Below, one piece after another: positions 35,360-54,677 of a stretch of 64,000 nt of DNA. The DNA is taken from the NCBI RefSeq assembly GCF_035594765.1, contig NW_026943821.1, positions 1,297,105-1,361,104 of the forward strand. The letters run 5' to 3'. The notes under the pieces were generated by a model that was not told where the DNA came from, made no database searches, and worked only from the letters and a program-made list of their open reading frames with translations. A program made the translations under genes and the position numbers. Each line of letters begins with the position of its first letter. Within the stretch, counting starts at the first letter, position 1. Source of the stretch: Anolis carolinensis (Eukaryota).

Positions 35360-38300
35360 ATGTGGGCACTGAGCAGCGGCTGCGGGACACCTTGGCTAAG
35401 CCTCTTCCTAGCTGGTGAGAGATTGGGGTTCATTGGGGTACAAATATATCATATATACTTGAAGATAAGCTGAGTTTTTCAGCCCTTATTTATGAGCTGA
35501 AAAACCTCCTCCGGCAGGTCAAGGTCAAGGCCAGCAATGGAGCCTGCAGACTGTTGCTTGCAATATGTGATCTATTTCTCTCTTCTCCTCCCTTATCAGT
35601 GTGTTTTCTTTTGCAAAGCCTCCCTCGCTCTTAATCAAGGGAATGTTTTGAAAAGAGAAAGACACCCTTGCAAGTCATCAAGAAGAAAAATATATATATT
35701 CATTAATCTTATGAAAGCATTTTCTCCTGAAATATTTCTTAAACTCTCCTACAGATACATAGGCATTAACCCCTTGCAAGCTTTTGCAATCTCTATGTAC
35801 CTTTATATGTGTATCTATCTATATACATTAATTTTATATTTTTGTCTTTCTCGCATAATAGTTGAGCCCACATTTGGGGCTGATTCTCCTTCCTTCCTTC
35901 CAGCATTCCATCTCTGAAGGCCAGGCAGTGTAAGTATTACAAAACGGAGATCTCTGAAGCTCCAATCTTCTCTCTTTTCTTCTTCTTCTGAGGCCTTAAG
36001 TCGGTTTATTAAAACCTGGAATTAAAGTCACAGGATATCAGATTTCCTCTCCTTTCTCCAAAGAACCCCATTCCAGGGTTTGTAAGCTGTTTCAAGGCCT
36101 TGGAGGAAGGAGAGAAGAGTGAAGCTTCAGAGACAGCCAGGTGATAGTTCTTAAACTCTATGCCTTTGGAGGAGGGAGGAAGGCAGAATCAGCCCCAAAT
36201 GGCTCTGCAATTTCAAAACAAACAGCGATGGAGCTGGATCATCCCTCTTCATCCTCTCCTTTCCTTGGTAAAGCAATTTGTTTTTGAAACAACAACAGAA
36301 ACCAGAGAATCAAAGGCAGATGTTGTTTCCTCGTGTAATAGTCGCACCCTCTTTTTTATGAAAAAAATTGTGACTATTATGTAATGAATATTGGTAAGTG
36401 TTCTACCCCAGTTACAACTTGGAATACAACTCTGTGTTTGTGTGTGGGTGGATAATATTGTCTAATCTAATTTAACTTCAAGTCTATATTATACGTTTTT
36501 AAGGCATTGAATAATTGCCTCTGTGTAAGCCGCTTTGAGTAGAGAAAGGTGAGGTAGAAATAGAGTAAATTAATCAATAATGGGATATTATTGTGCTAGA
36601 AAGGAGGCAGGGAGGGAGGGAGGGAGGATCAGACCCAAATGCCTCTGTAATTTAAGAACAAACAGGAAAGGAGCTGTTTTGTTGAGGCAAGGCAATGCAT
36701 TTAAAAACAACACCAACAGAAAACAGAGAGTCAAAGGCAGGTGTTATTTCCTCGTGTAATAGTCGCACCCTCTTTATTTTAATGAAAAAGGCAACAATTA
36801 TATGATGAAATATGCGTAAGTGTTCTACCCTGTTTACAACTTGGGATACAATTGGTGTGTGTGGATAATGGGATATGACTATGCTAGAAAGATAATACAG
36901 AACATTGGCTTCTCCAACCAGCCCAGATCTCTATTTCGTGCTTCTTTGTGGCTCACTCGCAAGACCCCACGACCGTAAACATCACCGTTGTACTCCTCCC
37001 CGAGTACCCAAAAGTCGGAGGCTCCGTTACAATCATCCCAGGGACAACGAAGCGGGACGTGACCTCCTGCCTGTGGCTCAAGAATTTTGAGGACGGATAC
37101 CATCGGATCATCTTGAACGAGTTCAAGCCCAACAATAAGGTCACGAAGGGAGATAAATATGATGGGAGACAGTTCCTTAGGGAGCACTGTGCCCTGCTCA
37201 TCACCAAGCTGGACATTGAGGACCAGGCAAGCTACAAGATCATCAAGAACACCACCAGCGAGACTGAGACTGGAGAAACATTCCTGCGGATCCTGGGAGA
37301 CAGTAAGGGTTTGGTGGTTTGGGGACATCTACATGGCCAAATGGAAGTGCTTTGTTATTATATGATTACAGTAGAGTCTCACTAATCCAAGCCTCGCTTA
37401 TCCAAGCCTCTGGATAATCCAAGCCATTTTTGTAGTCAATGTTTTCAATATATCGTGATATTTTGGTGCTAAATTCCTAAATACAGTAATTACAACATAA
37501 CACTACTGCGTACTGAACTACTTTTTCTGTCAAATTTGTTGTATAACGTGATGTTTTGGTGCTTAATTTGTAAAATCATAACCTAATTTGATGTTTAATA
37601 GGCTTTTCCTTAATCCCTCCTTATTATCCAAGATATTTGCTTATCCAAGCTTCTGCCGGCCCGTTTAGCTTGGATAAGTGAGACTCTACTGTATTATTAT
37701 TATTTTATTATGACACAGCAAACAAGATAGATATACTGGATTTCATATCACAAAATCACAAGTCGAACACTTCCCAAGTGTCTATTGACTGTGTGATGTA
37801 TTTTCAGATGATGCATGCAGATCCCAGTAGGGTGGCCTTTTGCAGATCATGATTTTGTCAATGTCTATTGTTTCCAAATGCCTGCTGAGATCTTCCTATA
37901 GTTGGAAGACATTGTTCCGCGTCCTAGTCTCCAGGGCAGCAGAAAACAATCCTGATCCTTCCTCCCTATGATTCCCCCTCACCTCTTGATCCATGTCCCT
38001 CATCATGTCTCCTCTCAGCCTTCTCTTCTGCAGGCTCAACATGTCCAGCACTTTCAGCCGCTCCTCACAGGGCTTGTTCTTCAGACCTTTGATCTTTTTA
38101 GTCACTCTCCTCTGGACACATTCCAGCTTAGAGTCAACATCTCCTTTCAATTCCACTGCCCAGATTCCAGGTGTGGTATCCAAGGCGGAATCGAAGGGTA
38201 GCACGACTATCTAGGCACAAGACTCCCATTGATGCAGGCCAGAATCCCATCGCATGACATTATTGTCTCATGTTCAACTTTTCCCCCCACAAGGACTCCA

Positions 38301-52392: not shown

Positions 52393-54677
52393 ATGTACAG
52401 TAGTAGGACTGTGCAATATTGCTGTTAATCCCCATAAGTCTTATCAAATTAGTTAAATTCAAACCTACAAGGTGATATCCGATGCCAGGACATGGCCTGT
52501 GCCAAAAACGTAAGAATCAAAACTTACCCAATAAGTTTTCATTTGGAATTTTTAAACCTCAAAAGCCTCCCAAAGTCAGTTTCATTTTCAGTGCAAGGAA
52601 GCAAAGCAAAGCCAAAAAGGCTGCCTTTCCTCTTTAAGGGAGAAAGCAGAGTTCACTGGGAAAGAGACCGAGAAAGCACAGGATTCATAGAATCATAGAA
52701 TAGTAAAGTTGGAAGAGACCTCATGGGCCATCCAGTCCAACCCCCTGCCAAGAAGCAGGAAATCGCATTCTCACACACAGTTAGGAAGCTCTTCCTCGTG
52801 TTCAGGTGGAATCTTCTTTCCTGTAGTTGGAAGACATTGTTCCGCGACCTAGTCTCCAGGGCAGCAGAAAACAATCCTGCTCCTTCCTCCCTATGACTTC
52901 CCCTCACATATTTATACATGACCCTCATCATGTCTCTTCTCAGCCTTCTCTTCTGCAAGCTCAACATGTCCAGCACTTTCAGCCGCTCCTCATAGGGCTT
53001 GTTCTCCAGACCCCTGATCTTTTTAGTCACTCTCCTCTGGACACATTTGTTGTGACTCAGCAGCCTGAACCTCAAATTGCCTCTGAAGAGTAAAGAGGGA
53101 TTCAGGTTCCCAGTATCCCTGAAAGGCCTGAAAGGCCTGTAGTGTTAGAGGATGAGGAACAGAGAGTGCAGTTTCAGGTTCCCACAGGAAAGGCTGGAGT
53201 AGATAATCCTGATGCCATGGGAATGGGAGAAGGAAGGATGGAAGATTCTCAGCTGAATGATGAGTCTCAGAGAATTAACGAGCAAACTGACCTTGATGAG
53301 TTTGGTACCTTAGATAGGGCTGACCGGTTGGAATTCAGAGTTCGGTGAAGTCTGAGAATCGCAAATAAAAGGGAGGTGAGGGGGCAAAGAAATGCCTTCA
53401 TGTTATGCAGAGTATTAAAAGGGGTGCGTTTGAAGGAAACCTTTGTCAAAACAACCAGAGTAACTCCTTCTAGATCGCAGATCTCTGTGTCCTACATCCA
53501 GAAAGGGGATGATGGGAGTTACAGACATTTTTTTATTAAAAAACTACGTTTCCAGGGCTTATGGCAGCAAGACATTCCAGATGAGTAGGCAGAAGCAGAG
53601 CCCTTGAGTAAAGATATAGGGGTGGGTAACATGTCCCATTGGCCTATGGCAGTCCTAATGGTGTTTTCTTGTGTTCCCAGTGGTCACTCCTAGTCCAGTT
53701 CCACACAAACTAGAGCCAAAGGTCATCACTGTGGGCACCATGGCGGGCATCATCGTCGGCTGCCTGATCGGGTCCGTCTTAATCGTAGGCCTGATCACGT
53801 ACCAGACCATGAAACAATCAGAAAGGTAATATTAATTTAATCTCTTGTTCTTTATTTCCAATGGATCCATCATATTTTGGGGGAGAAACTCAAGACGTAA
53901 AAGCAAACCGTTATCCTAAAACACAGGGTACACATGGACCAGCACAATGTTATGGGAAAAGGCGAGATAGATACGCCCTCCTTCGAAATGTTTCAAAGCC
54001 NNNNNNNNNNNNNNNNNNNNNNNNNNNNNNNNNNNNNNNNNNNNNNNNNNNNNNNNNNNNNNNNNNNNNNNNNNNNNNNNNNNNNNNNNNNNNNNNNNNN
54101 NNNNNNNNNNNNNNNNNNNNNNNNNNNNNNNNGATATGCTGGATTTCATATCACAAAATCACAAGTCGAACACTTCCCAAGTGTCTAGGACTGTGTGATG
54201 TATTTTTGGATGATGCGCGCAGATCCCAGTAGGGTGGCCTTTTGCAATTGGCAGATCGTAATTTTGTCAATGTCTATTGTTTCCAAATGCTGGCTGAGAT
54301 CTTTTGGCACGGCACCCAGTGTGCCCATCACCACCGGGACTTCCTGCACTGGTTTCTGCCAGAGTCTTTGCAGTTCAATCTTGAGGTCCTGAGAGCGGCT
54401 GAGTTTTTCCTGTTGTTTTTTGTCAATGCGACGGTCACCTGGGATGGTGACATCAATGATCCAAACCTTTTTCTTTTCCACAACTGTGATGTCTGGTGTG
54501 TTGTGTTCCAGAACTTTGTCAGTCTGGATTCGGAAGTCCCACAGTATCTTTGCGTGCTCATTTTCCAATACTTTTGCAGGTTTGTGATCCCACCAGTTCT
54601 TTGCTGCTGGGAGGTGGTACTTGAGGCATAAGTTCCAATGAATCATTTGGGCCACATAGTTGTGCCTCTGTTTGTAG

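Follow-up and report, generated by a model that had tools for sequence, protein, structure and literature searches.

Our results demonstrate that a 64,000-nt window of the Anolis carolinensis genome (GCF_035594765.1, NW_026943821.1:1,297,105-1,361,104, forward strand), the whole stretch analyzed here, holds tandem genes for CEACAM-type single-IgV proteins, and that in two of them, G3 and G4, amino acid replacements in the IgV exon exceed what either the flanks or the local silent sites would predict. This excess is centered on the C-C'-C'' edge of the domain and is also present in the stalk. The flanks have mosaic ancestry from recombination between paralogs. We consider it moderately probable that these are membrane proteins of an anole-expanded CEACAM-like group whose ectodomains were driven apart by diversifying selection, while recombination homogenized their leaders, introns, and 3' ends.

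Family, exon layout, and cytoplasmic tails

The earlier assignment of these genes to the CEACAM N-domain family is supported by profile, tree, and fold. All sequence matches in the PDB (9/9) are CEACAMs, an 85-sequence profile finds CEACAM1 at an E value of 1.5e-28 versus 1.3e-10 for the first non-CEACAM, and the best fold matches of a predicted model (pLDDT 95.4) are all CEACAMs, with a Z score of 16.4 versus 14.2 for the first non-CEACAM. A first AlphaFold model built from 6 sequences (pLDDT 48.8) was discarded. Pfam V-set remained below its cut-off in 4/4 domains, and the ESM Atlas returned generic V-set clusters only. In a quick version of the reptile tree (115 domains of at least 38 bits covering most of the profile, with 13 isoform or cluster duplicates left out), the six anole genes form one clade. 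All six lack the canonical B-F disulfide, F-strand position 93 being I, L, or F, and an extra Cys36/Cys76 pair is found in the anole N domains. W38, D87, and Y91 are invariant in the six paralogs and position 69 is R or K; these are the equivalents of Trp33, Arg64-Asp82, and Tyr86, and the salt-bridge pair is named in PMC4079198. The N exon encodes 13 signal-like residues upstream of the mature domain, and the fold alignment begins at mature residue 5-6; according to PMC13278318, the N exon of CEACAM genes codes for the end of the leader. No flanking gene was identified within the window; the known CEACAM locus is flanked by TOMM40 and LIPE. The databases label these anole genes "uncharacterized."

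Table 1. Features of the CEACAM-like genes, in positions of the window
Feature	Position	Strand	Remarks
G1 paralog	12616..23330	+	Leader 12616-12670, IgV from 15303, TM 17593-17737, last exon from 23066; model P0004
G2 paralog	23732..33320	+	Leader 23732-23786, IgV from 26287, TM 27625-27769, last exon from 33058; model P0005
G3 leader exon	35360..35414	+	18 codons, phase-1 donor; equals database model P0008; no listed RNA joint covers the exon
G3 alternative first exon	36175..36392	+	RNA-type contigs (X5, X11; two studies) join 36392 to the IgV exon; frame check; model P0007
G3 IgV/N exon	36922..37302	+	13 signal residues and 113-residue CEACAM-type N domain
G3 stalk and TM exon	40152..40290	+	TM equals that of G4; stalk diverged from that of G4
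G3 cytoplasmic mini-exon A	41958..42005	+	Ser/Gly-rich; model P0008
G3 cytoplasmic mini-exon B	43256..43312	+	QRLS motif; model P0008
G3 last exon	43808..44070	+	First complete codon after splicing is TGA; remainder 3' UTR; models end ...PAPQ
G4 leader exon	48029..48083	+	Sequence
G4 IgV/N exon	51914..52300	+	Donor from model P0003 alone, not from RNA
G4 stalk and TM exon	53681..53825	+	Sequence
G4 cytoplasmic mini-exon A	56224..56271	+	Sequence
G4 cytoplasmic mini-exon B	56846..56902	+	Sequence
G4 last exon	57981..58241	+	Sequence
G5 leader exon	62818..62872	+	G5 IgV exon would begin just beyond the window end; candidate gene for P0009

Spliced GT-AG joints were found in two runs only; these runs are putatively RNA, as none is recorded as such. 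Contigs of this type join 37302 to 40152, giving a G3 IgV exon of 126 full codons that is joined directly to the TM exon, with no IgC2 exon between. Translation from the last ATG of the alternative first exon, at 36384, places 4 residues directly ahead of the signal portion encoded by the IgV exon; the canonical G3 leader is scarcely covered in the two runs, which carries no evidential weight. The models terminate as soon as the last exon begins, at its first codon, and the unread frame of this exon, considered as a relic ITAM/ITIM exon, had no match among the fetched homologs (best E value, 0.014, low-complexity).

ITIM and ITAM motifs are absent from 6/6 anole tails, and a YxxPhi motif is present in 0/6 versus 12/16 tails outside the clade. 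A CEACAM1 ortholog was rejected because the IgV exon is spliced straight to the TM exon without IgC and the tail has no ITIM/ITSM, and a CEACAM3-type paired decoy because there is no ITAM or endocytic tail. When longer proteins carrying a similar N domain were sought, in searches that were weak and did not identify anole CEACAM1, the paralogs alone (3/119 candidates) or nothing (0/6786) came back. The SLAM/CD2 family was set aside, as it gave a single weak match (SLAMF6, E value 0.042), there is no IgC2 exon, and CEACAMs rank first in profile and fold. CEACAM19, which the tree does not place, was rejected in view of the six-gene clade, the absence of a tyrosine motif, and omega values of 0.5 to 1.8; CEACAM19 is a conserved single ortholog with an ITAM and a low dN/dS (0.22 to 0.34 in reptiles).

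Divergence of G3 and G4 along the gene

Between the G3 and G4 IgV exons (acceptors at 36922 and 51914), 41/129 residues and 59/387 nt differ, close to the roughly 40 residues of the earlier note, and all 41 residue differences fall within the 126 full codons of G3. Also as that note had it, the 34-residue TM segment is the same in both (0/34 residues and 1/104 nt differ), and the leaders are one residue apart (1/18 residues, 4/55 nt). The TM identity is confined to G3/G4, the remaining five pairs differing at 9 to 17 of 34 TM residues. The introns, long stretches of which were said to match almost base for base, do so where they can be aligned (151/3675 columns differ, K2P 0.042, so that alignable noncoding DNA is about 4% different), but large indels separate them elsewhere: their lengths are 1507/2849/1667/1250/495 in G3 and 3830/1380/2398/574/1078 in G4. 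Individual segments are between 2.5 and 7.1% divergent (P 0.011 for heterogeneity), and no 387-column intron window holds more than 30 differences, versus 59 in the IgV exon.

The main divergence peak begins after the signal part and stops at the end of the IgV exon. A second island takes in only the stalk-encoding portion of the TM exon, which diverges like the IgV domain (8/35 nt plus a 6-nt indel; P 0.003 even at a rate of 7.3%), with 7 replacement changes and 1 silent change by codon reading. Within the IgV domain, the fold model and structural alignment support the mapping of changes to the predicted GFCC'C'' sheet, and the four strings cited from just after the core Trp are present in the sequence. 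The high density of changes claimed for this region is seen in C-C'' (16/29 versus 24/84 elsewhere in the mature domain, Fisher p 0.010) but weakens when corrected for scanning (p 0.059), and stands at p 0.087 when restricted to sites variable in other reptiles. The parallel claim for the F/G strands did not hold (7/22 versus 17/62, p 0.45); they are the most conserved block across the six paralogs, with 10/22 positions invariant. The changed sites coincide with positions variable in other reptiles (p 0.001), and C-C'' is not enriched between G3 and P0009 (8/29 versus 17/84).

Selection, recombination, and the age of the IgV exon

At the intron rate, 10.8 to 11.2 replacement changes are expected between the G3 and G4 IgV exons and 47 are observed (P about 1e-15), and silent changes number 7 to 11 versus 4.4 to 4.5 expected. 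With CpG-aware rates, second positions give 24 versus 6.8 (P 2e-7) and silent third positions 7 versus 4.6 (P 0.19). Relative to the flank rate, amino acid changes are raised 3.5- to 4.4-fold and silent changes 1.5- to 2.5-fold. On the C-C'' and F-G strands (51 codons, a partition drawn after the codon list had been seen), the replacement-to-silent ratio is 26:0, compared with about 20:10 in the remaining 62 mature codons. In simulations at an omega of 1, the probability of zero silent changes among 24 to 28 differences is 0.0001 to 0.001, and the scan-corrected P for the run is 0.006 to 0.023; shifting the strand boundaries by 4 residues leaves the result stable (0 to 2.3 silent, 25 to 34 replacement).

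Whole-exon omega for G3/G4 is 1.23 by counting and 1.3 to 1.8 by maximum likelihood, never significantly above 1 (p 0.085 to 0.42), and an omega of 0.5 is rejected under both frequency models. With a single exon-wide silent clock, face omega is 1.6 to 2.4, significant under F1x4 only (p 0.024 to 0.038 versus 0.16 to 0.23). The other five pairs have whole-exon omegas of 0.47 to 1.14, and face omega is significantly above 1 in none. Site models for four genes (M1a/M2a, M7/M8, M8a/M8) gave no significant result (p 0.11 to 0.55), and their NEB site lists were not used; the M7 versus M8 comparison that the earlier note had proposed for its suggestion of diversifying selection gave p 0.19 to 0.47. 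That suggestion draws on the replacement excess over the flanks and the 26:0 ratio and gains nothing significant from the proposed site models. Overall, selection probably acted on the G3/G4 ectodomains.

A less likely but substantial alternative is that the IgV exon has evolved near neutrality (omega about 1) under relaxed constraint since an older duplication, and that later conversion homogenized the flanks and stalled at the divergent exon. The earlier note had named a related case, dN/dS well below 1 with dS equally raised, as fatal to its proposal. The first part of this case is not what we find; the second is partly so, since the flanks have recombined and, away from the face, silent sites have diverged by 0.21 to 0.27, far above the introns. 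The site models favor a large class at an omega near 1, and in older pairs IgV dS is 0.28 to 0.64 versus a flank K of 0.04 to 0.27. Across all five genes, 5' flanks differ by just 0.04 to 0.08 and IgV exons by 0.17 to 0.34, and at the 3' end a run of 7 sites groups G1 with G3 and G2 with G4 (permutation P 0.001), although some of these sites sit in an indel-rich stretch and may represent a single event. The G3 IgV has 25 differences from P0009 and 40 from G4, yet its TM equals that of G4. Because the IgV tree pairs G3 with P0009, the G3/G4 split is the older one, and because the mosaic flanks recombined between paralogs, the intron clock is too young, so the older-exon account is partly right. 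It leaves unexplained the 26:0 ratio, the 7:1 ratio in the stalk, and why divergence changes abruptly where the signal part ends and again within the TM exon, and it must face intact frames and invariant core residues in all six genes.

Very improbably, G3 and G4 are two alleles placed in tandem by the assembly: their flanks are about 96% identical and the window contains N gaps (272 bases), but they have separate gene ids and models on a 28.4-Mb record, large intron indels, and different neighbors, and G3-type and G4-type intron contigs both occur in run X20.

Candidate ligand face and comparison with known systems

Under diversifying selection with recombination, the proteins would be displayed on the cell surface and, like other CEACAMs, would use the GFCC'C'' sheet for binding; without ITIM or ITAM, they may be adhesion or sink receptors rather than phagocytic decoys. 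Copies with an altered C-C'' edge would be favored and conversion across the mature ectodomain selected against, while recombination between copies would maintain the likeness of leaders, introns, and 3' ends. By analogy, the selecting agent is tentatively a microbial or viral ligand. The host-pathogen arms race suggested in the earlier note may be the cause, but the features of paired receptors are missing and the G3 IgV was nearly monomorphic in 4 runs. G3 and G4 carry different residues at the positions that match the adhesin contacts Ser32, Tyr34, and Thr56, which fits a microbial as well as an endogenous partner. Selection by an endogenous partner seems rather improbable, whether through adhesion codes, homophilic or heterophilic, that are specific to each paralog or through a role in reproductive or secretory tissue like that of testis-specific CEACAM32. 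An endogenous partner would suit the lack of ITIM/ITAM in all six tails, the scant polymorphism (0, 0, 1 [silent], and 0 G3 IgV variants in 4 runs chosen from the best holders), the use of the same sheet in CEACAM1 trans-dimers as described in PMC9986547, the F-strand sequon that occupies the position matching adhesin-contact Ile91 in 5/6 genes, and an identity of only about 28% to an ITIM-bearing lizard CEACAM. This last figure sets the anole genes apart from the terrapin single-N genes, reported as 96 to 99% identical to CEACAM1 (PMC13278318).

Diversification of the N exon beside converted flanks is already known in CEACAMs, including mammalian ones, so that no new mechanism is involved; what is added is an instance from a lizard, in genes labeled "uncharacterized." The predicted anole N-domain fold resembles those of the human paired receptors CEACAM1 and CEACAM3 (Z 15 to 16, rmsd 2.0 to 2.5 A over 103 to 107 residues), and the layout of a single N domain plus TM is that of CEACAM3 (PMC13278318, PMC9986547). 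The anole proteins differ from both in lacking ITAM/ITIM, in having no near-identical ITIM partner that we could find, and in their cysteine pair and sequon. A close precedent is ruminant CEACAM32, a CEACAM paralog whose leader and introns, but not its Ig exons, have undergone conversion (PMC7042247); its replacements cluster at codons 36 to 52 near the CFG face and its overall dN/dS does not exceed 1, both as here, but it is one testis-specific gene across species, whereas the anole set comprises six tandem single-IgV paralogs in one lizard. The bat PSG-like/CEACAM expansions of PMC5594555 are likewise lineage specific, and their selected sites lie on the CFG face of the IgV domain, but they are described as mostly secreted, with up to about 100 genes and significant site tests; the anole proteins are membrane anchored and come from six genes, with nonsignificant site tests. 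Red/green opsins also combine a divergent functional exon with low-divergence flanking introns under gene conversion (PMC3924837), and the functional sites of the opsins are known.

For lizard CEACAM1 orthologs, a 2026 preprint reports a dN/dS of about 0.8 and no face enrichment (PMC13278318), while the anole set consists of paralogs diverging from one another. This suggests that another branch, one that does not signal, may be the one under pressure. More speculatively, and with considerable doubt, single-IgV CEACAMs with tyrosine-free tails may make up a squamate branch that has expanded in anoles into a fast-diversifying, nonsignaling recognition repertoire under positive selection. This repertoire would vary only the C-C'-C'' edge and stalk and would carry the extra Cys pair and a putative glycan covering the site of the classic adhesin hot spot, all within a clade for which CEACAM1 face selection is reported to be lacking. 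We found no paper on these genes in the CEACAM literature on Anolis, reptiles, or lizards/squamates; the string "anol" is absent from the main text of PMC13278318, whose supplements (species, genes) may include them. Because the six ectodomains are closely similar and come from a laboratory lizard, their ligand specificity can be tested directly.

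Divergence of the IgV exon between neighboring genes

Self-comparison of the window revealed a tandem array with a unit of ~10 to 13 kb, which on the + strand comprises four complete CEACAM-like genes (G1 to G4) plus the leader of a fifth (G5), each complete gene consisting of leader, IgV, stalk-plus-transmembrane (TM), small cytoplasmic, and last exons in this order. In the protein search, G1 to G4 corresponded to the database models P0004, P0005, P0008, and P0003, respectively, and two more paralogs (P0009 and P0006) were found; all six are labeled Anolis carolinensis "uncharacterized." An earlier note had contrasted a diversified IgV exon with near-identical surroundings in G3 and G4, and the counts largely bear this out: residues differ at 41 of 129 IgV codons (about 40 had been estimated), the TM segment is identical over all 34 residues, and the leader has one change in 18 residues. 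The TM identity is restricted to this pair, and the stalk-encoding half of the TM exon diverges as much as the IgV exon (8/35 nucleotides). The introns are near-identical where alignable (151 of 3,675 columns differ) but differ greatly in length; the IgV exon contains 59 differences versus 30 in the most divergent intron window of that length. We regard the IgV divergence as real. The dense changes that had been described hold for C-C'' (16/29, P = 0.010; 0.059 after scan correction) but not for the F/G strands (7/22, P = 0.45); the C-C'' enrichment did not recur between G3 and P0009 and was suggestive only over six paralogs (P = 0.085).

For the whole IgV exon of G3/G4, dN is 0.178 and dS is 0.145 (ratio, 1.23), with a maximum-likelihood omega of 1.3 to 1.8 (P = 0.085 to 0.42); the other five pairs give 0.47 to 1.14, and site models, among them the comparison proposed earlier, were nonsignificant with four genes (P = 0.11 to 0.55). 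Relative to the rate in the flanking non-coding DNA, G3/G4 IgV replacements are raised 4.2- to 4.4-fold (P ~1e-15) and silent changes 1.6- to 2.5-fold (P = 0.005 to 0.17); with CpG sites set apart, the excess is 3.5-fold at second positions (P = 2e-7) and 1.5-fold at silent third positions (P = 0.19). Locally the signal is strongest: on the face formed by C-C'' plus F-G, 26 changes are replacements and none is silent, against ~20 replacement and 10 silent changes in the remainder, and the 26:0 result holds under boundary shifts. Simulation at omega = 1 gave P = 0.0001 to 0.001 with this partition fixed and P = 0.006 to 0.023 for the longest silent-free run anywhere; because the partition, taken from CEACAM numbering, was drawn after the codon list was seen, the scan-corrected P is the fair value. 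With one silent clock, face omega is 1.6 to 2.4, significant under F1x4 only. Selection on the anole IgV is moderately supported.

Within G3 IgV (335 to 382 nucleotides), sequencing runs X5, X11, and X20 contain no variants and X16 contains one silent variant; these 4 of 24 listed runs, picked by likeness ranking with a bias toward low variation, gave no sign of balancing selection.

Family placement, fold, and candidate ligands

All nine PDB sequence matches are CEACAM N domains, and a profile from 85 relatives matches CEACAM1 (1.5e-28). The same alignment yielded a structure model with pLDDT 95.4 and with strands at 33-42 (C), 45-53 (C'), 59-62 (C''), 89-97 (F), and 100-108 (G); its top fold matches are likewise CEACAM N domains (Z 16.4; rmsd 2.2 Å over 106 residues), residues 6-111 aligning onto CEACAM 1-107. 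Origins were looked up for 20 of the 144 relatives found: they come from lizards, snakes, a turtle, and one source without a name, and several are named CEACAM-like. In a quick tree a single clade unites the six anole domains (SH-aLRT 99), nested in a 49-row group (support 93) whose named members are squamate, and ITIM/ITAM-bearing relatives lie mostly outside this group. Tails carry a YxxPhi motif in 0/6 anole proteins, 2/9 of the group, and 12/16 outside it. Most likely, these anole proteins would work at the cell surface in adhesion or as sinks, without tyrosine signaling.

As to what they bind, a microbial ligand is suggested by analogy, and an endogenous binding partner may be involved instead. 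Among positions matching HopQ contacts, as given in the available text of PMC9986547, G3 and G4 have different residues at those of Ser32, Tyr34, and Thr56 and agree at those of Phe29, Gln44, and Ile91. A sequon at Asn96, which matches CEACAM1 Ile91 in the sequence register, is present in 5/6 anole genes, 10/32 of the group, and 0/47 outside.

Cys36 and Cys76 (mature N domain) occur together in 173 of 201 domain hits, whereas the mammalian CEACAM structures aligned here lack this pair; the sequences point to a putative Cys36-Cys76 disulfide. The main text of a 2026 reptile preprint (PMC13278318) contains neither "cysteine" nor "disulfide."

Recombination among the copies

Distances among the 5' flanks of the five genes are uniformly small (0.04 to 0.08), and the IgV exons are 0.17 to 0.34 apart. 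At the 3' end, seven consecutive sites support the pairs G1/G3 and G2/G4 (P = 0.001, too strong if one indel underlies some of them); three neighboring sites of the 5' UTR pair G4 with G5; and 25 IgV residues are common to G3 and P0009 against G4, and 6 to G4 and P0009. The intron clock thus gives too young an age. G3/G4 non-coding segments are also heterogeneous in divergence (P = 0.011). An older IgV exon within converted flanks, the alternative raised earlier, is partly correct, but a whole-exon omega of 0.5 for G3/G4 is rejected under both frequency models; near-neutral drift of such an exon may also account for the divergence. In the most likely account, the C-C'-C'' edge and stalk were selected to differ between copies, and unequal crossing-over and conversion keep the remaining gene parts alike.

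Gene conversion bypassing a functional exon is a recognized sign of selection (PMC3924837) and is reported in CEACAM32 (PMC7042247), and a bat expansion is reported in PMC5594555. In its available text, PMC13278318 gives a dN/dS of ~0.8 for lizard CEACAM1, without face enrichment; its main text does not mention anoles, and its supplements may list these genes. CEACAM19 is the sole lizard gene named in the available text of PMC4079198. The anole genes are a further case of a kind already known.

Transcripts, last exons, and local repeats

RNA-type contigs from two studies support both G3 splices in the table. The open last-exon frame may be the relic of an exon with a tyrosine motif, although no supporting homolog was found. 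The X20 contig may represent a converted G3 allele or alignment overhang.

Coordinates of features in the array (window positions)
Feature	Position	Remarks
G3 alternative first exon	36175-36392	Spliced to IgV exon; within intron 1; used in both RNA-type runs; several upstream ATGs, short start only ahead of the IgV exon's signal part
Local duplication including this exon	36171-36456 vs 36611-36869	
G3 IgV exon end to TM exon start	37302 to 40152	Spliced directly
Last exons	23066, 33058, 43808, 57981	TGA is first full codon; frame otherwise open ~70 codons in G1, G2, and G4, ending I-I-Y-P-R-M; frameshift in G3
Cytoplasmic mini-exon A, G1	19096-19320	Present twice, local duplication
Cytoplasmic mini-exon B, G2	30149, 31220, 31905	Present three times, local duplication
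Run X20, record 15 contig	35810-36317	G4-type letters, starting 27 nt upstream of G3/G4 homology boundary
69-nt tandem units	1838-2255	Inside retroelement-like stretch
Short repeat element	16344-17121	In triplicate
143-nt units of another repeat	18091-18950	About six
End of a repeat element	61218-62169	~7 head-to-tail copies, (TTA)n runs between

In the database models, the duplicated mini-exons make the Ser-rich tail longer. The anole tail motif Q-Q-R-L-S, which we take from its consensus to be a possible kinase site, also occurs in Sceloporus and Crotalus relatives (P0013 and P0086).
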